A DNA stretch of 64,000 nucleotides, taken from IMG/VR virus record IMGVR_UViG_3300043438_000835; one strand, written 5' to 3'. This DNA is from an uncultured virus (IMG/VR IMGVR_UViG_3300043438_000835). Lineage: Duplodnaviria > Heunggongvirae > Uroviricota > Caudoviricetes. The position numbers were made by a program, and so were the translations under genes. Below the pieces are notes generated by a model. The model did not search any database and was not told the DNA's origin. It saw nothing but the letters and a program-made list of their open reading frames with translations. Below, piece after piece: positions 43,002 through 61,978 of this stretch; positions within the stretch are counted from its first letter, which is position 1; every line of letters begins with the position of its first letter.

Positions 43002-45332
43002 ATGATTACAGTGGTTAAACGTAATGGGAATCGTGTCCCCTTAGACATAGCAAAGATACAAAGACAGGTAGCATATTCGTGTAGAGGTATAGATGGAGTA
43101 AGTCCATCCATGATTGAGATCAAGGCACAGATTGAACTACACGACGGAATGACCACTAAAACCATCGACGAACTACTGTTAAAAGCAATGGTCGACTTGA
43201 TCGACGAAACAGAAAATCCAGAAATTAATAATGTAAACTATCAACAGGTAGCTGGCAGGCAAAAAGTCAGTATGTTACGTAAAGAAGTATACGGAGAGTA
43301 TGATCCTCCTAAACTATACAGCATTGTTAAAAAGAATGTAGAGCTAGGTATGTATACTAGTGATCTGCTAGAATGGTATACACAAGAAGAATGGGATATT
43401 ATTGACCTATTCATTGATCATAGCAAAGATGAAAACTATACCTATGCAGCCGTGGCACAATTGGCTGAAAAGTATCTAGTACAAAATCGTGCTACAGGTA
43501 TAATCTATGAAACTCCTCAGGTTCGTTATGCTATTGCCGCCGCAACAGCTTTTCACAATGAATCTAAGGATAAAAGACTAAAATTAGTAAAGGAATATTA
43601 TGAGTGTGCAAGTGATGGCCACTTTACTTTAGCTACCCCTGTCCTTGCTGGCCTTGGCACCACAACTAAACAATTCAGTAGTTGCGTACTTATTAGTAGT
43701 GATGATACTCTTGATTCGATCTTTGCCGCAGGCGAAATGATGGCCAAATATGCTTCAAAACGAGCCGGAATTGGTCTCGAAATTGGCAGAATCCGCCCCT
43801 TAGGGGCCCCTATTCGCAACGGTGAGATCAAGCATACGGGTATGATACCATTCTTAAAGAAATGGTTTGCAGACCTTCGCAGTTGCAGTCAAGGCGGTAT
43901 TCGTAATGCTAGCTGTACAGTAACTTTTCCCATCTGGCATTATCAGTTTGAGGACCTTATTGTTCTAAAGAACAACCAAGGTACCGAGGAAGTGCGGGTA
44001 CGCCAAATGGACTATAGTGTTGTTGTTAATGCTATGTTCTGGAATCGGTATAAGCGTGGCGAAACAATGAGTTTGTTTGATCCAGCAGAAGTTCCGGATC
44101 TATACGAAGCCTACTACAGAGACTCAGCAGAATTTGAAAAGTTGTATCTACAATATGAACAAGATAAGACAAAGAAAAAGAAAGTTGTATCAGCGGATGA
44201 GATATTCAAAAATGGAATCCTTAAAGAGCGAACTGATACGGGGCGTATATATCTTGTCAATATCGACAACGTTATTAACCAGGGTCCATTTGATACAACC
44301 TTGGATCCAATATATCAATCAAACTTATGCCAGGAGATACTTTTACCCACCCGCCCTTTCCAGAGAATTGAAGATCCAGAGGGACGAATTGCTCTTTGCA
44401 CTCTTGGCAGCATCAACTGGGGAGCGTTCCGTAACCCACAAGAGATGAGAAAAGCCTGTCGTGTGCTGGTCCGAAGTTTAAGTAATTTACTACAATATCA
44501 AGATTTTTTAAGTGTACAAAGTAAACTCGCTAATCAAGACTTCGAACCACTTGGAGTTGGCATTACTAATCTTGCTTACTGGCATGCACGTAAAAGTTTC
44601 AAATACGGGACCGATGAAGCATTAGCTGAAGTTAAGCGTTGGACGGAACACCAAGCATACTACCTAACCGAAATGAGTGTCGAGCTTGCCCAAGAACGTG
44701 GCCCATGCGGACGTAGTCAGTACACTTACTATGGTAAGGGAGTGTTTCCCTGGGAGCGTCGTAAACCTGGAGTTAACGAATTAACTGACTTTACTCCTAG
44801 TATGGATTGGGAACCATTACGTGAAAGAATGATCAAGTACGGTATTCGTAATGCTACCTTAATGGCCGTGGCACCAGTAGAGTCCAGTTCAGTTGTGTTA
44901 AACTCTACCAACGGAATTGAAATGCCGATGGAATTGATTTCTGTAAAGGAATCGAAAGCTGGATCGTTTGTACAAGTCGTGCCAGAGTACAAACGTCTAA
45001 AGAATCGTTATCAGTTGATGTGGGATCAGAAGGACTGTGTTGACTATTTGAAGACCAGTGCTGTGCTTGCTGCCTACATTGATCAAAGCCTGAGCACTAA
45101 TACATTCTACAACCCGGCACATTTTGCTGGAGGAAAAGTGCCGGGTACATTAATTGCTAAAAATTTAATGTTAGCCTACAAATGGGGCATTAAGACAATC
45201 TATTACAGTTTAATTAATAAAATGGGTGCAAAGGCAGATGTAACAAACACTAACATATCTATCCCCATTGCAATCAATGCCGCAGATAATGTAGTATTGT
45301 ACGATGATGATTGCGAAGCCTGTAAATTATAA
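43002..45332 (+). CDS. nrdA: ribonucleotide reductase class Ia alpha subunit
   Basis: ATP cone VVKRNG; QFSSCVL; QSNLCQEI; ALCTLGS; KTIYY; C-terminal CEACKL. Confidence 0.96.
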   Translation: MITVVKRNGNRVPLDIAKIQRQVAYSCRGIDGVSPSMIEIKAQIELHDGMTTKTIDELLLKAMVDLIDETENPEINNVNYQQVAGRQKVSMLRKEVYGEYDPPKLYSIVKKNVELGMYTSDLLEWYTQEEWDIIDLFIDHSKDENYTYAAVAQLAEKYLVQNRATGIIYETPQVRYAIAAATAFHNESKDKRLKLVKEYYECASDGHFTLATPVLAGLGTTTKQFSSCVLISSDDTLDSIFAAGEMMAKYASKRAGIGLEIGRIRPLGAPIRNGEIKHTGMIPFLKKWFADLRSCSQGGIRNASCTVTFPIWHYQFEDLIVLKNNQGTEEVRVRQMDYSVVVNAMFWNRYKRGETMSLFDPAEVPDLYEAYYRDSAEFEKLYLQYEQDKTKKKKVVSADEIFKNGILKERTDTGRIYLVNIDNVINQGPFDTTLDPIYQSNLCQEILLPTRPFQRIEDPEGRIALCTLGSINWGAFRNPQEMRKACRVLVRSLSNLLQYQDFLSVQSKLANQDFEPLGVGITNLAYWHARKSFKYGTDEALAEVKRWTEHQAYYLTEMSVELAQERGPCGRSQYTYYGKGVFPWERRKPGVNELTDFTPSMDWEPLRERMIKYGIRNATLMAVAPVESSSVVLNSTNGIEMPMELISVKESKAGSFVQVVPEYKRLKNRYQLMWDQKDCVDYLKTSAVLAAYIDQSLSTNTFYNPAHFAGGKVPGTLIAKNLMLAYKWGIKTIYYSLINKMGAKADVTNTNISIPIAINAADNVVLYDDDCEACKL

Positions 45333-45344
45333 AGAGAACCACAC

Positions 45345-46445
45345 ATGAGCAAAGAACAATACAATCTATCAAAACAAACAAACTATCTAAAACGTACAAT
45401 GTTTCTGGATCCAGCTGGTCCAGTTACTGTGCAACGCTTTGAAGAAGTCAAGTACCCTAAGATTACCAAGTACGAAGAACTTGCTCGTGGATTCTTTTGG
45501 GTCCCAGAAGAGATCAGTCTTACTAAAGACAAGATGGATCACAAGGATGCAAGTGATGCAGTTAAGCATATTTTTACTAGTAACTTACTGCGTCAGACAG
45601 CATTAGATAGTATTCAAGGTCGCGCACCTAATCAAGTATTTCAACCTGTTATCAGTATTCCTGAACTAGAAGCATTAGTAAGCAATTGGAGTTTCTTTGA
45701 AACAAATATTCACTCAAAATCTTACAGTCACATTATTCGTAATGTCTATGGCGTACCTAAAGAAGAATTTAACAAGATTCACGACACGGCTGAAATTGTT
45801 GGCATGGCTGCTAACATTGGTCGCTACTATGAGGATCTTCATCAGCTCAACTGTCGTAAAGAGTTGGGCGAGGAAATTGAACTCCATACTCATAAGCGAG
45901 CCATATGGTTGGCCTTACACGCATCATATGCATTGGAGGCTCTACGCTTCATGGTAAGTTTTGCCACAAGTCTAGCAATGGTAGAGAATAAGATCTATAT
46001 TGGCAACGGTAACATCATCAGTTTGATTCTACAAGATGAGTTGTTACATACAGAATGGACTGCCTGGCTGATCAACAACGTGACTAAAGATGATACAGAC
46101 TTTGTAAAACTTGAAGAAGAATGTGCAGAAGAAGTCTATACCCTCTATATGGATGTCATCCGAGAAGAAAAAGAGTGGGCAGATTATTTGTTCAAGCTAG
46201 GACCAGTTATTGGCCTTAATGCTACTATCCTGTCTGACTTTGTTGACTACACTGCGTTTGTGCGTTTAAAGGAAATTGGTATTAAGTATCAAGGAGAGCA
46301 TCCTAAGTTTAGTCCTATCCCTTGGTTCAACAAACACGTTAATATCAATAAGAAACAGACCGCCTTGCAAGAAAACGAAAGTACTAACTATGTCATCGGT
46401 GTTATGAGTGATGCAGTTAGTTACGACGAATTACCGGATTTATAA
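45345..46445 (+). CDS. nrdB: ribonucleotide reductase class Ia beta subunit
   Basis: FWVPEE; QTALDSIQ; FETNIHSKSY; LEALRF; DELLH. Confidence 0.96.
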   Translation: MSKEQYNLSKQTNYLKRTMFLDPAGPVTVQRFEEVKYPKITKYEELARGFFWVPEEISLTKDKMDHKDASDAVKHIFTSNLLRQTALDSIQGRAPNQVFQPVISIPELEALVSNWSFFETNIHSKSYSHIIRNVYGVPKEEFNKIHDTAEIVGMAANIGRYYEDLHQLNCRKELGEEIELHTHKRAIWLALHASYALEALRFMVSFATSLAMVENKIYIGNGNIISLILQDELLHTEWTAWLINNVTKDDTDFVKLEEECAEEVYTLYMDVIREEKEWADYLFKLGPVIGLNATILSDFVDYTAFVRLKEIGIKYQGEHPKFSPIPWFNKHVNINKKQTALQENESTNYVIGVMSDAVSYDELPDL

Positions 46446-50501: not shown

Positions 50502-50920
50502 TAATAGACTTTCGCAGGGGCAAGTTTGCGTAGCAGATATGCAGTAGGTGAGATTCCTGCAGGCTTAGCAGAGGCCAAACACACCCTGGGAAGTCTGTTA
50601 AAAGTTAAGACTGTATGAAGTAGACAGAAAAGGATTCAAGACGCGGGGGCAGTGCCCGCCAGGTCCACCATAAAACATATTTCCGACAGTAGGCGGAGGT
50701 GACAATGTCCATTCGGGTGAGTATGTTTTATAATGGGCCTGACACAGGATCGATTGGGTCAAGAGTATTGAAATGGACAGTCCGGCAATGTAGAAGCCGT
50801 TAGGATTGGGGTGACCCGGTCGCAGAAGCAAAAAACCTAAATGCAAACGATGCATACTTTGGAGAAGACCGCCTAGCAGCGTGATCTCCACGAGGTAGTT
50901 ATACCTTGTCACCCAAAATA
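50502..50920 (+). ncRNA. ssrA: circularly permuted (two-piece) tmRNA: acceptor piece ending CCA at 50670, intervening segment 50671-50734, coding piece from 50735
   Basis: acceptor stem GGGCCTG/CAGGTCC-ACCA with G3.U70; T arm GCGGG-GGCAGTG-CCCGC; tag ORF 50843-50884 ANDAYFGEDRLAA*; outer ends approximate. Confidence 0.92.
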
Positions 50921-50922
50921 GC

Positions 50923-50949
50923 AGAACCCGCTTCGGCGGGTTTCTTTTT
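50923..50949 (+). terminator. intrinsic terminator of tmRNA
   Basis: AACCCGC-TTCG-GCGGGTT followed by TCTTTTT. Confidence 0.85.
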
Positions 50950-50985: not shown

Positions 50986-51031
50986 CGTTTTGTGTTTAAA
51001 TATTAATATCACAAACACAAGGAGACTTACA

Positions 51032-52036
51032 GTGAAAAAATTATTTGCTATTCTATTTGCAGCCGTAGCAGTGTCAGCACAAGCCGCAGACATTACAGGT
51101 GCCGGAGCTACCTTCCCATTCCCAATCTATGCCAAGTGGGCTGAAGGCTACAAAAAAGCCACAGGTACAGGCATGAACTATCAAAGCATCGGAAGTTCGG
51201 GTGGCATTCGTCAAATCAATGCAAAGACCGTTGACTTTGGTGCAACAGATGCTCCGGTAAGCGGTGAGAACTTGGACAAGAACGGACAGGTTCAATTTCC
51301 TGCTATCATTGGCGGCACAGTTCCTGTGGTAAACTTAGACGGATTCAAACCCGGAGAACTACGCATCACTGGTCCAGTTATGGCTGAAGTGTTTATGGGC
51401 AACATCACCAAGTGGAATGACCCTAAACTGGCTGCATTAAATCCAGGCAAGAACCTACCTAACGAGAACATCACCATTGTTCATCGTGCTGATGGTTCAG
51501 GTACAACATTCAACTGGACCGATTACTTGGCCACAGTAAGCCCTGAGTGGCTACAACGTGTGGGTCGTGGCGCCGCAGTCAAGTGGCCAGCAGCCACTTC
51601 AGTAGGTGGCAAGGGCAATGAAGGTGTTGCTGCCAATGTGAACAGAATCAAAGGTTCAATTGGTTATGTAGAGTATGCTTATGTTAAGAAAAACAACATG
51701 ACATTCCTGCAACTACAAAACAAGAGTGGCAAGTATGTAAGCCCGGACGACTTGACATTTGCTGCCGCAGCAGATGGTGCTGATTGGTTCAGTGTTCCAG
51801 GTATGGGACTTAGCATCGTGGATCAAAAGAATCCCAATGCATGGCCAGTGAGTTCAGCAAGTTTTATCATCATGTACAAAACTCCTGCTAACAAAGCTAC
51901 TAGTGACGAAGTATTAAAGTTCTTTGATTGGGCATTCAAGAATGGTAAGAAAGATGCTGCCGACCTAGACTATGTGGCATTGCCTGACAGCTTGACAAAG
52001 CAGATCCGTGAACGTGTTTGGACACAGATCAAATAA
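51032..52036 (+). CDS. pstS: phosphate ABC transporter substrate-binding protein
   Basis: signal peptide; ITGAGATFP; YQSIGSSGG; DFGATD; HRADGSGTT; GTG start with AAGGAG RBS. Confidence 0.96.
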   Translation: MKKLFAILFAAVAVSAQAADITGAGATFPFPIYAKWAEGYKKATGTGMNYQSIGSSGGIRQINAKTVDFGATDAPVSGENLDKNGQVQFPAIIGGTVPVVNLDGFKPGELRITGPVMAEVFMGNITKWNDPKLAALNPGKNLPNENITIVHRADGSGTTFNWTDYLATVSPEWLQRVGRGAAVKWPAATSVGGKGNEGVAANVNRIKGSIGYVEYAYVKKNNMTFLQLQNKSGKYVSPDDLTFAAAADGADWFSVPGMGLSIVDQKNPNAWPVSSASFIIMYKTPANKATSDEVLKFFDWAFKNGKKDAADLDYVALPDSLTKQIRERVWTQIK

Positions 52037-54188: not shown

Positions 54189-54589
54189 TGAACGGAAAAA
54201 TTACACTCATCACCCCTCCCGACATTTTTGAAAATGATTCGTATAGTGTACTGTTTATGCATCTAAGCGATTCCGATCAACAATTAGTTAGTAAATGGTT
54301 AGCTGAATCAGACATCGAAGAACATATTAATGTATACTTCTACGATCACGAAATAGATTTACCTTGGCTCTTTCATGCGTTGGCTAGATGCGATTACAAA
54401 TACATCGATCTCAACGAAGTTAATGATGTCACTCGATCACTCAGTGGATACATTGTAGGGAAAAAGAATACATTCTATAAAGTTGATGATGAAAGCCTGT
54501 CCGCAGTTTATCACTACATAAACCAAGATCGGATAACTAATATTGAAACATTTTTAGAAAAGGCATTCAATGAACAAAACAGAAAGTGA
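54188..54589 (+). CDS. hypothetical protein
   Basis: ITLITPPD start; coupled to neighbours. Confidence 0.65.
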   Translation: MNGKITLITPPDIFENDSYSVLFMHLSDSDQQLVSKWLAESDIEEHINVYFYDHEIDLPWLFHALARCDYKYIDLNEVNDVTRSLSGYIVGKKNTFYKVDDESLSAVYHYINQDRITNIETFLEKAFNEQNRK

Positions 54590-55799
54590 TCACTCTTGTG
54601 ACTTCTGCGGAAAGAGCAAAGAAGATGTCGAGAAACTGATCGTAGGTGAACATGCGGCTATTTGTAACGAGTGCGTAGACCTTTGTGTCGATATACTAAA
54701 AGACAAAAAAGAAAAAGTTGCTGAACCTTCTAAACTTCTAAATCCTGTTGCTATCAAAGACTATCTTGACGAGTACGTTATAGGACAGGATGATGCTAAA
54801 ATTAGCCTTAGTGTTGCAGTTAGTCAGCATTACAAACGCATCAATAATCCTAGTAAAGATATTGAGCTCGAGAAAACCAACGTGTTATTGTTAGGACCCA
54901 CGGGCTGCGGTAAGACCATGATGGCACGTAAAATTGCACAATATTTAGAATTACCTTTTGCCATATGTGATGCCACAGGTATTACAGAAGCAGGTTATGT
55001 CGGTGATGATGTTGAGAGCATTTTAACAAGATTAATCAACGAAGCAGATGGTGATCTTGATAAAGCGGCTCGTGGCATTGTCTACATTGACGAAATTGAT
55101 AAAATTTCCAAGAAGGGCGAAAATGTTAGTATTAGCCGAGATGTTAGTGGAGAAGGTGTACAACAGGCCTTGTTGAAAATGATCGAGGGATCGATTATGC
55201 GAGTGCCATCGACTGGTAAACGAAAACATCCCGGAAGTGATATGCAGGAAATTGACACTAGGGGTATATTGTTTATATGCGGTGGAGCATTTGTAGGCTT
55301 GGACAAAATCATTAAACAGCGTAAGGGTGCAAAGTCAGTCGGATTCCATGCAAATGTAGACAACATCGACGAAGACGCAAGTGTTCTACAAGACATCAGT
55401 ACAAAAGATCTTATCAAATACGGTCTTATTCCCGAGTTTGTAGGACGATTTGGGCTTATTACTAATGTAGACGAATTGTCAGAGGATCAACTAGTCAATA
55501 TCCTTACTGAAACTAAAAATAGCCCAGTTAAACAATATCAGTATATGTTTGAGTTAGATGGTATTAAATTAGAATTTGAAATTCAAGCTCTAAAAGAAAT
55601 TGCCCGTAAAGCCAAAGATCTCAAAACTAATGCTAGGGGACTTAAAAACATCATCGAAAAAACATTGCTGCCATATCAATTTGATGCAGTTGACTTAGTT
55701 GCTCGAGGTTTAACAGCTATTCGCATAAGTAAAGATACGATTGATGGCAAACCTGCCATAATGATTTTTGATAAAAAGAAAAATGAGCAAACAAAATAA
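54570..55799 (+). CDS. clpX: ATP-dependent Clp protease ATP-binding subunit ClpX
   Basis: CDFC...CNEC zinc-binding domain; GPTGCGKT; GYVG; IDEIDKI; RDVSGEGVQQALLK; RKHP; VGF. Confidence 0.95.
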   Translation: MNKTESDHSCDFCGKSKEDVEKLIVGEHAAICNECVDLCVDILKDKKEKVAEPSKLLNPVAIKDYLDEYVIGQDDAKISLSVAVSQHYKRINNPSKDIELEKTNVLLLGPTGCGKTMMARKIAQYLELPFAICDATGITEAGYVGDDVESILTRLINEADGDLDKAARGIVYIDEIDKISKKGENVSISRDVSGEGVQQALLKMIEGSIMRVPSTGKRKHPGSDMQEIDTRGILFICGGAFVGLDKIIKQRKGAKSVGFHANVDNIDEDASVLQDISTKDLIKYGLIPEFVGRFGLITNVDELSEDQLVNILTETKNSPVKQYQYMFELDGIKLEFEIQALKEIARKAKDLKTNARGLKNIIEKTLLPYQFDAVDLVARGLTAIRISKDTIDGKPAIMIFDKKKNEQTK

Positions 55800-56016
55800 A
55801 GCAGTCGGTAATAAAGTTATCGTTGGCGACTTGCCATTAAATGTGGCATTAAGAAAATTCAAACAAAAGGTAGAAGATAGTGGAGTACTAGAAACACTCC
55901 GATCTAAAATGTTTTACGAAAAACCAACTACCGAAAGAAAGCGAAAAAAAGGCGCAGCTAAATCTCGTTGGCAAAAGAAACTACGCGATAACGAACTACC
56001 TAAAAAAATGTATTGA
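55783..56016 (+). CDS. rpsU: ribosomal protein bS21
   Basis: ALRKFKQKV...G....LRSKMFYEKPTTERKRKKGAAKSRW. Confidence 0.88.
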   Translation: MSKQNKAVGNKVIVGDLPLNVALRKFKQKVEDSGVLETLRSKMFYEKPTTERKRKKGAAKSRWQKKLRDNELPKKMY

Positions 56017-56578: not shown

Positions 56579-56624
56579 TTTGGATAAACCAGTTCTTGAC
56601 AGGACTGGTTTTTTCTTGTATAAT
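56579..56624 (+). promoter_or_regulatory. sigma70-type promoter with upstream box, overlapping a terminator-like hairpin
   Basis: TTTGGATAAA - 7 nt - TTGACA - 17 nt - TATAAT; AAACCAGTTCT/AGGACTGGTTT inverted repeat. Confidence 0.8.
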
Positions 56625-56651
56625 AAAGACTTACACACAAAAGGATTTGAT

Positions 56652-57872
56652 ATGGCTTTTAATCAACATGCTGACCCTAAAGATAATTTTGGGCAAGACT
56701 TAATTCAAATTTTTGGACCACGCACTGCTCGAAAACATATTTCTAAACTCACTCCTGCTGAGAAAGAGGCTATTTTAGATAAAGTACCGGAATATGTAGA
56801 AACAGACGACCTTGGCCCACGTCCTAGCTTTTATCAGGTTGCAAACAAGATTCTGTTAATACTAAAGAATACCAAGGCACTAAATGGTATTGACCTTAAC
56901 TGGTGTATGTCCTTGTCAAATGGGGGAATTTTCCGCGACCCTTCTCATTATATTCACACTGCCAAGGCATATAAAAACAATTCTGTTCAGCGCGGCATTC
57001 AGTTACGCCATCTATTGCAGGACATCCTCTTTGAATTTGAGCCTAGTCATGTATTAATGGGACTGGCTCGGCAGCTCAGTGACGGTACTTACAATCTTAA
57101 TAATGGTCAACATCGAACACTTGCATGTATTATTATTGGGGTACGTGAAGTTCCGGTAGAATGGAAAGTTAGTGATTTTGAAAGTGTAGACGTTGACCTG
57201 TATGCAACAGACAATCTGCATACATTGTCTGCTAGCCCTTTTGACGAGTTTCGAATTAAGGTTCGACGAAATCAAGTACGTAAGGCAGAAGGTCGAACTG
57301 ATTTAATTGCCGAAGATATCAAATGTGAACATGTGTTTGACATTCATGCTCGATACGGAAGTCGATTTGTAGAAAAAGGTAAAGGCACGGATAATGTGTT
57401 ACCAAAAGAATGTACAGGCGTGGGTAACATGCTAAAATACTACGATGTTTACGGAGCCGACATCTACGAACGTGCGGTGGGAATAGTATGTTCTATATTT
57501 GCCAAAGCACCGTTCTCTACTGCAAATGCGTGGGGAATTATGGAATACTTGCGTGAACAAGAAAACAACGGACCCATCTCTGATTCAATGGAGTTGGATT
57601 GGAACATTCAGGAAGCAATTACTTACAAGTACACAGATCCAGTTCGTAGTGGCATGCACTTAGATATTAAAAAAGTATTTCGTGAGTTTTTGGAAAATAA
57701 TGCTAAAGCCGGTAAGTTTCTAGACTGCTCCGAGCCAAGATATCTTGCGGCCGGTATTGGTAAATTGTGCAAAATTGTACATCCTACAATTAATTGGGCA
57801 CCAATTAATTACAATGGACAAGATGTTGAAGTTGCACTTGCAGGATTTAAAGCAATTCCTAAGAAGCCATGA
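56652..57872 (+). CDS. ParB/Srx-like (DGQHR-type) domain protein
   Basis: VQR...YNLNNGQHRTLA motif; AAGGA RBS before ATG 56652. Confidence 0.6.
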   Translation: MAFNQHADPKDNFGQDLIQIFGPRTARKHISKLTPAEKEAILDKVPEYVETDDLGPRPSFYQVANKILLILKNTKALNGIDLNWCMSLSNGGIFRDPSHYIHTAKAYKNNSVQRGIQLRHLLQDILFEFEPSHVLMGLARQLSDGTYNLNNGQHRTLACIIIGVREVPVEWKVSDFESVDVDLYATDNLHTLSASPFDEFRIKVRRNQVRKAEGRTDLIAEDIKCEHVFDIHARYGSRFVEKGKGTDNVLPKECTGVGNMLKYYDVYGADIYERAVGIVCSIFAKAPFSTANAWGIMEYLREQENNGPISDSMELDWNIQEAITYKYTDPVRSGMHLDIKKVFREFLENNAKAGKFLDCSEPRYLAAGIGKLCKIVHPTINWAPINYNGQDVEVALAGFKAIPKKP

Positions 57873-58408
57873 ACCACATTGATATCAACAAGGCTATAAC
57901 TAATAGATCCCTCTTTACTGGGCGTGAAGAAGGTACCTATTTTACAGGCGAGCTTTATGACTATGTATGTGATAACCATGACGACCCGTTTATTCTTTTT
58001 AAACTAGCAGTCTACGGTTATTACGCAAAAGAATATAAATGGACTAGAGAGCAAGCAGATCAATTTATTGAAGATCATAAAGAGAATTCAATAAAATGGA
58101 CTGACGGAGTAAATGAATATTATTACGATTGGGGCAAGGGCAAAAATTTGATTACCTCAGATTATCTGCATGTTCCTAATCTAGACCATATTGTTCCAAA
58201 AAGTCTCGGCGGCAAGGATGTTCCAGGAAATCTACGTATCCGATGCAGGCGTCTGAATGAAAATAGAGGAAATACTAATTCGGATAAAGAACGCAGAGCC
58301 ACTATCATTGATCTTTATCAAGATATGTCGTCAGATGAGCAACAAAAGTTAATCATCTACCTAGAAAGTTTGGGTAAATTAAACATTGACAACTTGAACA
58401 ATAAATAA
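57869..58408 (+). CDS. HNH-type nuclease
   Basis: PNLDHIVPKSLGG...NLRI.CRRLNENRGN; ATGA overlap. Confidence 0.75.
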   Translation: MNHIDINKAITNRSLFTGREEGTYFTGELYDYVCDNHDDPFILFKLAVYGYYAKEYKWTREQADQFIEDHKENSIKWTDGVNEYYYDWGKGKNLITSDYLHVPNLDHIVPKSLGGKDVPGNLRIRCRRLNENRGNTNSDKERRATIIDLYQDMSSDEQQKLIIYLESLGKLNIDNLNNK

Positions 58409-58414
58409 TACACT
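58369..58414 (+). promoter_or_regulatory. sigma70-type promoter with upstream box
   Basis: TTTGGGTAAA - 7 nt - TTGACA - 17 nt - TACACT. Confidence 0.75.
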
Positions 58415-58432
58415 AAACACAAGGAGATAATC

Positions 58433-58507
58433 ATGGCACGTAGATCAGATAGGGCAACAAGTCCAATTAAAGTTGCAGTTCGCCGCCAACTTAGAAAGAA
58501 AAAATGA
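58433..58507 (+). CDS. 24-aa Arg/Lys-rich peptide (not in track)
   Basis: MARRSDRATSPIKVAVRRQLRKKK; AAGGAG RBS. Confidence 0.75.
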   Translation: MARRSDRATSPIKVAVRRQLRKKK

Positions 58508-58581
58508 TGGCTAAATTTAGAGCACATCATCCTCGATCAGTACGTGCTACTGCACGTCGAATTGTCAAAAAAAGGAAATAA
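58504..58581 (+). CDS. 25-aa Arg/Lys-rich peptide (not in track)
   Basis: MMAKFRAHHPRSVRATARRIVKKRK; ATGA overlap. Confidence 0.7.
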   Translation: MMAKFRAHHPRSVRATARRIVKKRK

Positions 58582-58584
58582 CTT

Positions 58585-58686
58585 ATGCCAAGCCCGCGCA
58601 AAGTCAGTCAAATCTTAAAAGGCAAAAAGCCCCCAAAGCCAAAGACTGTAAACGAAATGGCTCGTCGAGCCGCAAAAAAGCGTTAA
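58585..58686 (+). CDS. 33-aa Lys/Arg/Pro-rich peptide (not in track)
   Basis: MPSPRKVSQILKGKKPPKPKTVNEMARRAAKKR; AAGGA RBS. Confidence 0.7.
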   Translation: MPSPRKVSQILKGKKPPKPKTVNEMARRAAKKR

Positions 58687-58731
58687 TAAATTTTATGCTG
58701 TGAGAAACGGCATTTTACAAGGAGAAATTGT

Positions 58732-59013
58732 ATGAAAGAACATAATGTATTAATTCGTCACTACCGAGACGGCTCAATCGGTATTCACGCCCGCAAAAAC
58801 GTGGGCGAAAACAAAGTAGAAATTCACGAGTCTTGGGCACAAGCATCTCTAGATGTTATGAGCAAGACTTACCAAAAGATTCGAGCAGGAGAATTGGTAA
58901 GAGTTGAAACAGTTATCCAAAATCTAAGCAAATCTGATGCACAGGCCGCTAAACGATTTCTAATCATGTATTTCCAAAATCAGGGTATTTCTGTAGTTAA
59001 TCCAGAATCTTAA
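58732..59013 (+). CDS. hypothetical protein
   Basis: AAGGAG RBS. Confidence 0.65.
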   Translation: MKEHNVLIRHYRDGSIGIHARKNVGENKVEIHESWAQASLDVMSKTYQKIRAGELVRVETVIQNLSKSDAQAAKRFLIMYFQNQGISVVNPES

Positions 59014-59023
59014 TTTGGATAAA

Positions 59024-59069
59024 TTTGGCAACGCCTGGGTCTGACATTCCTGCCGCTGACCAAGATAAT
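59024..59069 (+). promoter_or_regulatory. weaker sigma70-type promoter with upstream box
   Basis: TTTGGCAACG - 7 nt - CTGACA - 17 nt - GATAAT; second box TTTGGATAAA at 59014. Confidence 0.55.
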
Positions 59070-59082
59070 CTAGGACGTTAAT

Positions 59083-59403
59083 ATGTTTGACTGGTTTAAA
59101 AATTTTAAAAACTCTAGAGACGAGAACCAAAATCACGGGTATACAAATATGGAAAATAAAATTAATCCAATCCCTCCTATTCCTAATATTCCAAAAAATC
59201 AATTTCGTGATCACTATAGAGTAGGTTACGACAATGAAACAGGATCAACTACTTTAACTCTACATACTGATGTAACCAGTATGACTTTAAGTCTAGGACC
59301 CCCTGATGTTCTTAGGCTCATTCGGATGCTAGGTGCAACACTAGACGATGAAGATATTATCGGACATATGCATGACGGAGATCTCGATGAGGATGACGAA
59401 TGA
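59083..59403 (+). CDS. hypothetical protein
   Basis: AGGAC RBS. Confidence 0.6.
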   Translation: MFDWFKNFKNSRDENQNHGYTNMENKINPIPPIPNIPKNQFRDHYRVGYDNETGSTTLTLHTDVTSMTLSLGPPDVLRLIRMLGATLDDEDIIGHMHDGDLDEDDE

Positions 59404-59693
59404 TAGCGATTACCTTTGCCATACAGAATCCTCGATTTAAAGGTTGGAAGAGTTTTAAGAACATCCGACATTGGCATGGTGCTACTCCTTTTAAAAATAA
59501 GCATTGGGAGTTCGAGCTGCTTAAAAATGGTTGCATTGTAGAATTTGATTTTACAGTAAGAACACGATGCGACCATTCTGGTGCAACATTAGGTCTGGGT
59601 CTGTTTGGCTACAGCATTAACGCAACTCTTTATGACAATCGTCATTGGGACGTTGAAAATAACTGTTGGAAAGTATATGGGCAATCAAACTGA
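59400..59693 (+). CDS. hypothetical protein
   Basis: ATGA overlap. Confidence 0.6.
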   Translation: MIAITFAIQNPRFKGWKSFKNIRHWHGATPFKNKHWEFELLKNGCIVEFDFTVRTRCDHSGATLGLGLFGYSINATLYDNRHWDVENNCWKVYGQSN

Positions 59694-60150: not shown

Positions 60151-60225
60151 CTATTATTGACATAGGAAAAATCAATGGAAAACCATGAGTTTTTAGTTGA
60201 TTGCTATTGTAAATAACTGTACAAT
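60151..60225 (+). promoter_or_regulatory. OxyR-like site and sigma70 promoter upstream of ahpC
   Basis: CTAT-N7-ATAG-N7-CAAT (60151-60176); TTGATT - 17 nt - TACAAT. Confidence 0.5.
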
Positions 60226-60280
60226 AAACACACGCAGAATAATTCTGCAAATTTTTCATTTCACACACAAAGGAGATATT

Positions 60281-60820
60281 ATGAAAACAGTTGGCGACAA
60301 ATTAGCCCCATTCGCAGTCACTGGTGTTAAGCCAGGACAACCAGAAGACGCTTTCTTTACAATTACAGATGAGAGCTGGCCAGGCAAGTGGAAAGTAATC
60401 GTATACTACCCAAAAGACTTTACATTTGTATGCCCTACAGAAATTGTGGCATACGACAAACTAACAGATGACTTTTTTGATCGTGATGCCGTTCTATTGA
60501 CCGGTTCAACCGATAACGAATTCTGTAAGACAGCTTGGCAAACGGCTCACCCAGATTTAAAGAAGATCACACACACTCAATTTGCTGATACACAGCGTGG
60601 TGAGTTGAGCTTGATTGAGCAATTAGGCGTATTCTACGCTCCAGCAGGTGCTGCACTTCGTGCTACATTCATTGTTGATCCAAACAACGAAATCCAACAC
60701 GTCACAGTCAACAACTTGAACGTTGGTCGTAGTCCAGAAGAAACCCTGCGTGTGCTTGATGCCCTGCAGACTGGCGAACTGTGTGCATGTAACCGCACAG
60801 TTGGCGGCGAGACTCTGTAA
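60281..60820 (+). CDS. ahpC: peroxiredoxin AhpC
   Basis: YPKDFTFVCPTE; VGRSPEETLRVLDALQTGELC; AAGGAG RBS. Confidence 0.93.
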   Translation: MKTVGDKLAPFAVTGVKPGQPEDAFFTITDESWPGKWKVIVYYPKDFTFVCPTEIVAYDKLTDDFFDRDAVLLTGSTDNEFCKTAWQTAHPDLKKITHTQFADTQRGELSLIEQLGVFYAPAGAALRATFIVDPNNEIQHVTVNNLNVGRSPEETLRVLDALQTGELCACNRTVGGETL

Positions 60821-61470
60821 TGTTAGAGACTATATGCGATACTTTGGTTGAAGCATATAGACGCAACTGGATTACCAGTCGTGATGGCAATGTTTCGATT
60901 CGCCATCACGACCGTGATCACTTTTATATCACACCCAGTGGCGTCCGTAAGCAAACCATGCAGCCAGACCAGTTTAAGAAGATTGGTATTGAACAAGGCT
61001 ACTATGACCAACCTCCTAGGCCATACTATTCTTGGAAAGAATTGGCATATACTGACATCAGTGAGAAGCTAAAACCTAGTGGAGAATTACCTCTGCATTT
61101 TGGCTTACAAAAGAATATGGGTCAGCATAGTAATGATGTTAGAGTAGTAGTTCACTTACACCCTACCTATTGTATTGCGGCCATGCATGCCGGCATTGAT
61201 TTAAGTACTATCAGTTCAGCATTTCCAGAATTAAATCGTTACACTAAGGTAGCACCTAATGTGGGTGATGTTGCTCCAATTAGTCAAGAGCTTGCTGACC
61301 GTTGCCATGAGAATCTTAAGTTAGACAGTGCGGGTAACATTAAGTATGATATTGTGGGCATCAAGGGCCACGGCGTGGTAGCAATTGATACAAGTCCGTG
61401 GCGTGCATTTGAACACATTGAACGATTGGAACACATTTGCCAAATCGTATTAGCATCAGGAAAATATTAA
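60820..61470 (+). CDS. class II aldolase/adducin family protein
   Basis: GNVSIR...ITPSG...KPSGELPLH...VVHLHP...GHGVVA. Confidence 0.85.
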   Translation: MLETICDTLVEAYRRNWITSRDGNVSIRHHDRDHFYITPSGVRKQTMQPDQFKKIGIEQGYYDQPPRPYYSWKELAYTDISEKLKPSGELPLHFGLQKNMGQHSNDVRVVVHLHPTYCIAAMHAGIDLSTISSAFPELNRYTKVAPNVGDVAPISQELADRCHENLKLDSAGNIKYDIVGIKGHGVVAIDTSPWRAFEHIERLEHICQIVLASGKY

Positions 61471-61471
61471 A

Positions 61472-61978
61472 ATGAGCTTTATTGAATCAGTAAAAGGTGC
61501 GTTGCCAGACTATGCCAAAGACACTAAGTTAAATCTTGACGCTGTGCTACTTCGTAGCACATTGGATGCAGATGTGGCCATAGGTTGTGCTGTGGCTGCA
61601 TTGGCTGCAACTGGTAACGGTAAGGTATTGGGCATCTTGTTAGCGGATGCTCCTGTCCACGCAGAGTCAGCTATGTGTGCCGCTTCAATTATGAGCCAAA
61701 ACAACACGTGGTACCCCTTTGTTGAAATGGCTGATGATCCTGGTCTAAAAGGATTGCCGGCACAGTTGCGAATGAACGCCATTGCCAATCATGGCGGAAC
61801 TACCAAGAGCAACTTTGAAGCATTCAGTTTAGCCGCAAGCATTGTCGGTAAGTGTCACTTCTGTGTGAAAGCACATTACGAGACATTGAAGACAGAAGGC
61901 TACACAGTGGAACAACTTCGTGATATTGGACGTATTGCCAGTGTCATGAATAGTGTTGCTAAAGTATTAAACAGTTAA
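61472..61978 (+). CDS. ahpD: alkyl hydroperoxide reductase AhpD
   Basis: LPDYAKDTKLNL...LAASIVGKCHFCVKAH. Confidence 0.9.
   Translation: MSFIESVKGALPDYAKDTKLNLDAVLLRSTLDADVAIGCAVAALAATGNGKVLGILLADAPVHAESAMCAASIMSQNNTWYPFVEMADDPGLKGLPAQLRMNAIANHGGTTKSNFEAFSLAASIVGKCHFCVKAHYETLKTEGYTVEQLRDIGRIASVMNSVAKVLNS

Follow-up and report, generated by a model that had tools for sequence, protein, structure and literature searches.

Three micro-genes of a lake phage are a local copy of a widespread, unannotated micro-protein superfamily linked to phage tmRNA

Abstract

In this work, we present an analysis of three very short genes encoding Lys/Arg-rich micro-proteins, located in a 64,000-nucleotide stretch of DNA from an uncultured virus of the Caudoviricetes (IMG/VR record IMGVR_UViG_3300043438_000835); this whole stretch is called the window below. 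The locus represents, in this phage, a widespread superfamily of phage micro-proteins which has gone unannotated and is linked to phage transfer-messenger RNA (tmRNA). We are close to certain that the three open reading frames (ORFs) are real, separately translated genes. Between about a quarter and a half of the arrays of such genes are joined physically to tmRNA/tRNA transcription units, and from their position the micro-genes would serve as the 5' leader of tmRNA/tRNA operons in many lake phages related to this one. The functional reading which we prefer, and which as a whole we propose tentatively, is that the peptides are made early and act in trans as polycationic RNA binders on ribosomes or tmRNA.

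Results

The micro-genes and their homologs

A first-pass annotation of the window, made from its letters alone, had listed three tightly coupled ORFs with their peptides, and both positions and translations were reproduced as it gave them. The elements of the locus are as follows (aa, amino acids; nt, nucleotides; dN/dS, ratio of nonsynonymous to synonymous change).

58386-58414, + strand: putative sigma70-type promoter, TTGACA (58386-58391), 17-nt spacer, TACACT (58409-58414), 10/12 matches
58421-58426, + strand: Shine-Dalgarno sequence AAGGAG, 6 nt before ORF1
58433-58507, + strand: ORF1, Fam A micro-protein gene, 24 aa (translation; 20 Fam A peptides, alignment A3, dN/dS 0.16-0.18)
58504-58581, + strand: ORF2, Fam B micro-protein gene, 25 aa, probably 24 from 58507 (21 Fam B peptides, alignment A4)
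58585-58686, + strand: ORF3, Fam C micro-protein gene, 33 aa, with AGGA 8 nt upstream (27 Fam C peptides)
58695-58717, + strand: hairpin ATGCTGT-GAGAA-ACGGCAT (stem-loop 58695-58713; 7 bp, GAGAA loop), then TTTT

ORF1 and ORF2 overlap in an ATGA junction; ORF2 and ORF3 lie in one frame, with TAA plus one codon between them. Since all other Fam B homologs (20/20) begin with MAK[FW], the true start of ORF2 is probably the second ATG, at 58507. A composition filter (ATG start, 17-45 aa, K+R of at least 33%, at least 4 K/R among the last 8 residues) returned exactly ORF1-ORF3 from both strands of the window, and the trio is far from chance.

The sequence alone gave no family or cultured-phage match. 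The breakthrough was a full phmmer scan with ORF3, which returned 5 matches (E 8e-9 to 3e-4, 66-85% identity) among 1.84 billion representatives; the matched database proteins, of 45-71 aa, have only the Fam C part in common. By alignment of these matches 36 viral loci with a Fam C homolog were retrieved, in which further tiny basic ORFs flank the ORF3 homolog, and these include homologs of ORF1 and ORF2. Motif scans added 53 Fam B and 40 Fam A loci, and removal of identical arrays left 78 different arrays with 98 different peptides (A 20, B 21, C 27, D 8, E 5, others 17). The peptides have 21-38 residues and a net charge of +8 to +15, with 41% K+R and 0.7% D+E. They are encoded in the orders ACD, AC, EACD, FBCF, FCB, EABC, BC, CE, CA, AB and AD or as single genes, and neighbouring micro-genes are spaced by -4 to +3 nt in most arrays, which is tight enough for translational coupling.

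In the codon alignments synonymous change is saturated and the peptides are kept, with dN/dS between 0.02 and 0.18. The test of selection proposed in the first-pass annotation thus gave purifying selection on all three families: for Fam C, dN/dS is 0.048 across 28 codons, with 0.023 for the first 20 of them (proportion of synonymous differences, pS, 0.67; third positions variable in 26/28 codons vs second positions in 9/28), for Fam B 0.068 (pS 0.73), and for Fam A 0.16-0.18. These alignments bear on the possibility that we are dealing with chance ORFs or with the debris of one frameshifted gene, for which one could cite the very short ORFs, the A-runs at both junctions and the common frame of ORF2 and ORF3. 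However, each homolog is a separate gene that starts and stops by itself, the order and number of such genes are shuffled between arrays, none of the relatives seen carries a fused form, and TAA is the normal stop codon (53/68 window genes). Conservation refutes both versions, and the chance that these are not genes is negligible. Stop-codon recoding is excluded as well by the usual role of TAA. The sole single nucleotide polymorphism against near-identical relatives in 58301-58800 is synonymous and falls within ORF3, and the array is without indels in 3 lake DNA runs aligned to the window.

The sequence is highly conserved across phages with differing flanking genes, and the arrays are among the most strongly conserved sequences of otherwise mosaic genomes. 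Homologs of the array occur in many contexts. Lake DNA runs contain short contigs of related variants of the cassette, and therefore it occurs in more than one context within the same lakes. One such contig, at 58422-58457, joins the array start to a different upstream sequence; another, at 58511-58581, carries the Fam B gene with 7 changes and then the Fam C start with synonymous changes. Among 50,697 cultured-phage records no match was found, either by blastn with 57800-59100 or by tblastn with ORF3 and its 430-aa neighbour, a search in which the BLAST low-complexity filter may mask part of ORF3. The two largest fragments of this phage yielded no further E/F-type genes, an empty result that proves nothing.

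All three ORFs had been described as falling below gene-caller thresholds. This is true of ORF1 and ORF2 but not of ORF3, as ORF3-like proteins are present in protein databases; the ESM Atlas contains ORF3 letter for letter, with neighbours scoring at most 0.87. Standard gene callers overlook genes as short as ORF1 and ORF2, and for this reason the class is absent from phage annotations.

The peptides share a helical C-terminal module, Ala-(Arg/Lys)-Arg-x-(Leu/Val/Ile)-(Lys/Arg)4, followed by the stop codon. A similar basic ending of the three peptides had been noticed before, and hhalign between the families shows it to be real: A vs B/D gave 90% probability (E 1.4e-6), C vs B/D 69% (E 4.5e-5) and E/F vs C 79% (E 1.5e-5). 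Families A, B and C are thus related, as parts of one phage-specific micro-protein superfamily. With no Pfam, NCBIfam, PHROGs or PDB match for these families, the earlier idea of an undescribed, conserved micro-peptide module is borne out.

Linkage to tmRNA and tRNA genes

A conserved sequence with a tRNA-acceptor-like end, found 3' of many arrays, is a permuted two-piece tmRNA (ARAGORN, Rfam). In relatives it scores 75-167 bits with RF04321/RF01850, above the cut-offs, and the ARAGORN tags end in ...LAA or ...IAA. Among 28 non-redundant relatives ascertained through Fam C, the tmRNA starts 4-30 nt after the last micro-gene stop in 11; in three more it lies at ~350 nt with a CspA-like gene between, and in one each at 896 nt and 2071 nt. 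An nhmmer profile of the acceptor piece was applied to arrays from all three ascertainments; among the 77 unique ones that are followed by 120 nt or more of sequence, it placed the piece at most 40 nt from the array in 21/77 and at most 900 nt in 36/77. In arrays with a tmRNA within 900 nt it is always downstream and on the same strand. The gap between stop and tmRNA of 1-13 nt therefore puts the micro-genes on the tmRNA precursor.

In four loci (L039, L050, L056, L070) an exact TTGACA-17-TAnAAT is followed by the array and by a tmRNA within 30 nt. Two others (L087, L105) have tRNA-Trp 3-5 nt after the array, then the tmRNA and two tRNA-Met, and in L069 the Fam C gene follows a tRNA-Thr at a distance of 35 nt. 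A CspA-like gene adjoins 12/78 arrays. Separately, ARAGORN reports a tRNA with anticodon CTA (labelled tRNA-Pyl) in L070 (5753-5828) and L163, 0.7-1.6 kb from the arrays, which would be of the amber-suppressor type. The link to RNA and translation proposed in the first-pass annotation is in this way supported circumstantially, via co-transcription with phage tmRNA and tRNA. A two-piece tmRNA directly behind an early promoter is described for a marine phage in PMC9004378. The literature searched contains no description of ORFs in a tmRNA leader or of these peptides; bulk small-protein catalogues may list Fam C without comment.

Such an arrangement could also mean that the micro-ORFs act in cis, so that their translation, or stalling or slow termination at the polybasic end, controls the folding, processing or transcription of what lies downstream, be it tmRNA, tRNA, iscU or, in the window, a 93-codon gene. 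With the last stop at most 40 nt (mostly 1-13 nt) from the first tmRNA helix in 21/77 arrays, a terminating ribosome would therefore cover that helix. Any family may be last in an array, yet all share the basic C-terminal module, and it is general knowledge that peptides of 21-38 residues are still inside the exit tunnel at termination. On the other hand, a leader has no need of 2-4 different ORFs in an array, many arrays are free-standing and terminator-ended, and arrest peptides are usually most constrained near the C-terminus, which we count against a cis role. Rare-codon or poly(A) bias is lacking: Lys/Arg codon use of the micro-genes equals that of the phage's long genes and A-runs of at least 8 occur in 2/98 genes. 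In an attenuation-type leader the peptide would be free to drift outside the regulatory codons, and there would be runs of the sensed amino acid or rare codons for it; here we see dN/dS of 0.02-0.18 over whole peptides and ordinary Lys/Arg codons. We regard control in cis as rather improbable. Poly(A)-track or rare-codon stalling was considered on its own and was not seen among the 98 genes.

Promoter and 3' hairpin

The TTGACA-17-TACACT boxes overlap, at its 3' end, the HNH-like gene upstream, whose stop codon is at 58406-58408. Their promoter role in the window is inferred and putative: promoter-like sites number 22 per 5 kb vs 13.7 +/- 3.8 in shuffles, and a single match is not unusual. The argument comes from the relatives, where 10/29 non-redundant arrays have an exact TTGACA-17-TAnnnT whose end is 18-31 nt ahead of the first ATG, and by this recurring architecture the early sigma70-type promoter of the first-pass annotation holds. 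Sigma70-type promoters drive early genes in T4-like phages. The ribosome binding site AAGGAG is likewise present where it had been placed, and its full form is found in only 3/68 window genes. The conserved early-type promoters are the main argument that the arrays would be expressed. A T4-late-type promoter candidate, AATAAATA at 58400-58407, was set aside, the conserved feature being the sigma70-type boxes.

The hairpin behind ORF3 had been taken for a boxB-like element. It folds at -7.6 kcal/mol alone, with TTTTAC next to it. Its stability is unremarkable (z = -1.5; 18/200 shuffles fold equally well), and it has one copy in the window when up to 3 mismatches are allowed. Rfam gave only two sub-threshold chance rows over the array region. 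The hairpin is identical in near-identical relatives, which is uninformative, and was not found in any diverged relative, where a tmRNA, tRNA, canonical terminator or the next gene stands instead; the search for 3' structures in relatives covered single hairpins. Among 50 arrays without tmRNA/tRNA within 100 nt, 11 have a strong terminator of A-tract, GC-stem and T-tract (-10.7 to -14.7 kcal/mol), 0-5 nt after the last stop. It sits at the place of these terminators. We take the window hairpin for a weak terminator of the cassette, or for a stabiliser of its 3' end, and not for boxB.

Antitermination of the lambda N kind, acting through the GAGAA hairpin in nascent RNA, was suggested by the Arg/Lys-rich helical peptides and the purine-rich pentaloop hairpin just 3' of them. 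BoxB typically occurs at more than one nut site, and lambda N, of ~100 aa, joins its Arg-rich motif to a longer region contacting NusA and RNA polymerase. Here the hairpin is single, statistically ordinary and absent from every diverged relative, and the peptides, which have no Pfam match, are too short to hold a part for contacts with the transcription machinery. This reading does not stand, and we consider it very improbable.

Genome context in the phage

The window is part of a large phage whose genes lie nearly all on the + strand. Among near-identical IMG/VR records lengths go up to 208 kb (estimated completeness 58%), and the exact protein of a neighbour gene is also present on contigs of up to 376 kb. 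All 24 listed runs containing the stretch (24/24; 23 DNA, 1 RNA) are labelled as lake water metagenome. The following features surround the array.

50555-50945, + strand: permuted two-piece tmRNA (RF04321, 101.9 bits vs cut-off 47; RF01849, 55.5 vs 50)
54570-55799, + strand: predicted ClpX-like ATPase with N-terminal zinc finger, bS21 directly after
55768-56016, + strand: bS21 ribosomal protein (phrog_21469, E 4e-16; PF01165, 51.5 bits vs 27; TIGR00030, 51.5 bits)
56580-58408, + strand: pair of genes for a 430-aa protein and a 179-aa HNH-like protein

The conserved pair was found in 24/24 viral loci (L012-L035). Because it is always kept together, the HNH-like protein is best seen as a member of this pair and not as a free homing endonuclease. 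The 430-aa protein has no Pfam match and shows invariant N..QHR columns (alignment A1); its homologs begin at residue 25, and so its true start is probably Met25. The array follows the pair only in 4 near-identical loci, while the 20 diverged loci continue with unrelated genes. Therefore the window array behaves like an inserted, self-contained cassette. When the 93-aa downstream gene and the 430-aa upstream gene were used as synteny anchors, only near-identical copies carried the array.

The window tmRNA lies in a 492-nt gap between ORFs, has its own terminator and encodes the tag ANDAYFGEDRLAA at 50843-50884. It scores above the Rfam gathering thresholds of the two models listed, and its tag frame ends in ...AA as a tmRNA tag should; with RF01850 it reaches 59 bits, below the cut-off of 84. 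Its T-loop region departs from the usual GGTTCGA, and the element was missed by ARAGORN. Together, the genes for tmRNA, the ClpX-like protein and bS21 appear to form a block for translation and quality control. SmpB was not found in fragments covering 13-58% of this phage's genome, which proves nothing. Elsewhere in the window there are genes of auxiliary metabolic type at 60197-61978 (+), downstream of the array (AhpC/TSA peroxiredoxin, class II aldolase, CMD-family protein), a PstS-like gene at 50990-52036 and ribonucleotide reductase genes at 43002-46445.

Discussion

The arrangement described above suggests the following order of events. Host RNA polymerase would make the transcript early in infection from a cassette built of a sigma70-type promoter, a strong ribosome binding site, three coupled ORFs and a weak terminator hairpin, which may end or stabilise the array transcript; in relatives the micro-proteins would be translated from the 5' leader of a stable-RNA precursor and thus made together with phage tmRNA and tRNAs. 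The peptides would then act in trans, as polycationic alpha-helical RNA binders on rRNA and the ribosome or on tmRNA, and in infected cells could stabilise or protect translation or ribosome rescue, or retune them. That the window phage carries its tmRNA and bS21 within 8 kb of the array counts in favour. We put forward early, trans-acting, RNA-binding peptides on ribosomes or tmRNA as a tentative functional reading, which could well prove wrong. The further step, that a phage-only superfamily from tmRNA/tRNA leaders supplies factors of a new kind which bind ribosomes or tmRNA, be it as virus-made 'micro ribosomal proteins' or by binding the mRNA channel, and with which lake phages take over translation or rescue in the first minutes of infection, is in our opinion doubtful.

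Several observations weigh against a role on ribosomes or tmRNA. In family searches, nothing above cut-off was found for ORF1-ORF3 in Pfam, NCBIfam and PHROGs, 0/69 peptides match ribosomal Pfam families, and family and PDB searches show no significant similarity to ribosomal proteins or rescue factors. In the window phage, the array is 7.5 kb downstream of the tmRNA and does not adjoin it. An IscU/NifU-like Fe-S scaffold gene is directly downstream of 16/78 arrays, mostly of Fam B, a context which a translation role does not explain, and 21/78 arrays, the window's included, have no translation-related neighbour (or IscU) in the available sequence; such array counts moreover span related phages and are not independent events. 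Linkage to tmRNA may reflect a shared strong early promoter, or the use of a structured RNA as a stable 3' end. Polycations bind any nucleic acid. As to expression, two 151-nt contigs (58444-58594 and 58588-58738) in one lake metatranscriptome run, with nothing else in 57500-59500, are a weak hint, as they have depth 2, may come from DNA carry-over and belong to a run found with words from 57869-59013.

The loci with a downstream IscU/NifU-like gene include L083, L086, L088, L092, L099, L100, L102, L110, L114 and L122; L123, L052, L058 and L067 are further ones.

The PDB profile search was equally empty, with 0 matches for Fam A and Fam C and only chance-level rows for B/D. For E/F the sole natural matches were the first 12-13 residues of bL35 (4 distinct sequences, E 0.49-1.9), below higher-scoring rows for designed repeat proteins. 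PHROGs searched at E up to 1 with 14 representatives gave nothing meaningful. Two candidates were dropped at this point. Kinship with bL35 failed, with 0/69 peptides in the Pfam family and a PDB E around 0.5; an 18-residue likeness of Fam B/D (alignment A4) to Dap1b (PDB 7oya chain s1), which we take to be the dormant-ribosome factor of vertebrate eggs, was treated as chance at E 0.84.

A weak similarity of Fam C points to DNA, and this too speaks against ribosome or tmRNA binding: PF01381 (HTH_3, helix-turn-helix) is matched by 27/28 Fam C members, with a best E of 9.4e-4 and all matches below cut-off. The matched region is presumably the recognition helix and the one following it. In Pfam at E up to 10, ORF1-ORF3 are without match except for a weak one of ORF3 to HTH_31 (PF13560; 13.8 bits vs a cut-off of 27, profile positions 27-52 of 64). 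Motif scans for Fam A and Fam C in one genome from each of 185,579 bacterial and archaeal species found no homolog, and the only exact Fam A-motif match was inside a 192-aa HTH protein from an actinobacterial metagenome-assembled genome (L170, 1180-1758, - strand), where the 11-residue Fam A tail exactly ends a weak HTH_38/HTH_23-like match that is followed by a good Cro/C1-type HTH. This suggests that the shared C-terminal module may resemble an HTH recognition helix.

The peptides could accordingly be general nucleic-acid binders, mainly of DNA. As early polycations they might coat or condense the DNA of host or phage, or they might be minimal recognition-helix peptides. Their net charge (+8 to +15, with 41% K+R) would suit such a role, as would the Ser-Pro-Arg-Arg and Lys/Pro-rich stretches in Fam C, which to us recall histone-tail-type DNA-binding motifs. 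But the HTH matches all stay below the curated cut-offs and cover about half of the ~55-residue XRE-type domain, and 33 residues cannot form the whole of it. The AlphaFold2 model of ORF3 (predicted local distance difference test score 88) has two helices, at 4-11 and 22-32, as a helix-loop-helix, and Foldseek found 0 matches to it in the PDB at E up to 10. Recurrence as tmRNA/tRNA leaders would be left unexplained, and packing of DNA into capsids, a late function, is argued against by the early-type promoters. We hold general nucleic-acid or DNA binding to be an unlikely explanation overall.

Alternatively, the peptides might be inhibitors or decoys of a host protein or another polyanion, such as a defence or RNA-degradation factor, with the tmRNA linkage being incidental. 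Short, early and confined to phages, the genes sit in arrays that behave like mobile cassettes, found in many contexts, and their strong conservation despite differing flanking genes is what a conserved host target would produce. The sequences suggest no particular protein target, though, and so extreme a positive charge is more typical of nucleic-acid ligands; we think a decoy role quite unlikely.

Whatever their function, the micro-genes are a widespread class in lake phages: a single viral collection contains 78 different arrays. The peptides are short enough for synthesis and, should ribosomes or tmRNA prove to be their target, would offer a direct and experimentally simple entry to the reprogramming of translation by phages with tmRNA, tRNAs and bS21. 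If not, they would still be a new family of minimal nucleic-acid-binding peptides.

Among known systems, the closest in setting are the translation parts of aquatic myophages, namely bS21, two-piece tmRNA and tRNAs, which are reported in the available parts of PMC6375957 and PMC9004378; micro-proteins have no mention in those parts. Like phage bS21 and tmRNA, the micro-genes are carried by large aquatic phages in the same genomic neighbourhood, are small and basic and evolve under purifying selection. Phage bS21 and tmRNA, however, were copied from cells; for the micro-proteins the scans made gave neither a cellular homolog nor a family match.

In size and charge they are like small basic ribosomal proteins, such as the bL35 N-terminal arm, bL34, bL36, bTHX, bS22 and eL41, but no profile of the bL35, bL34, bL36, bS21, bS22 or bTHX families matches them above its cut-off. 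Membership of a ribosomal-protein family is therefore not supported; the peptides may still act in a similar way. In ribosome rescue the empty mRNA channel is filled by basic tails, namely the SmpB C-terminal tail and those of ArfA and ArfB. They are also short, Lys/Arg-rich and tied to tmRNA, a tie that here consists in physical gene linkage only; PDB searches show no sequence similarity to them, and the likeness is one of mechanistic analogy only. The Arg-rich motif peptides of lambdoid N proteins are likewise Arg-rich, helical and encoded just after an early promoter, but they differ in having a conserved hairpin partner and a region for the transcription machinery.

As a genetic element, finally, the array resembles a moron: it has its own promoter, a hairpin with a TTTT end and a place of insertion after the conserved 430-aa/HNH pair, and it is missing from that place in all 20 diverged relatives. 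It differs from morons, which are usually known from temperate phages as single genes of ordinary size, in that its cargo is an array of micro-genes.

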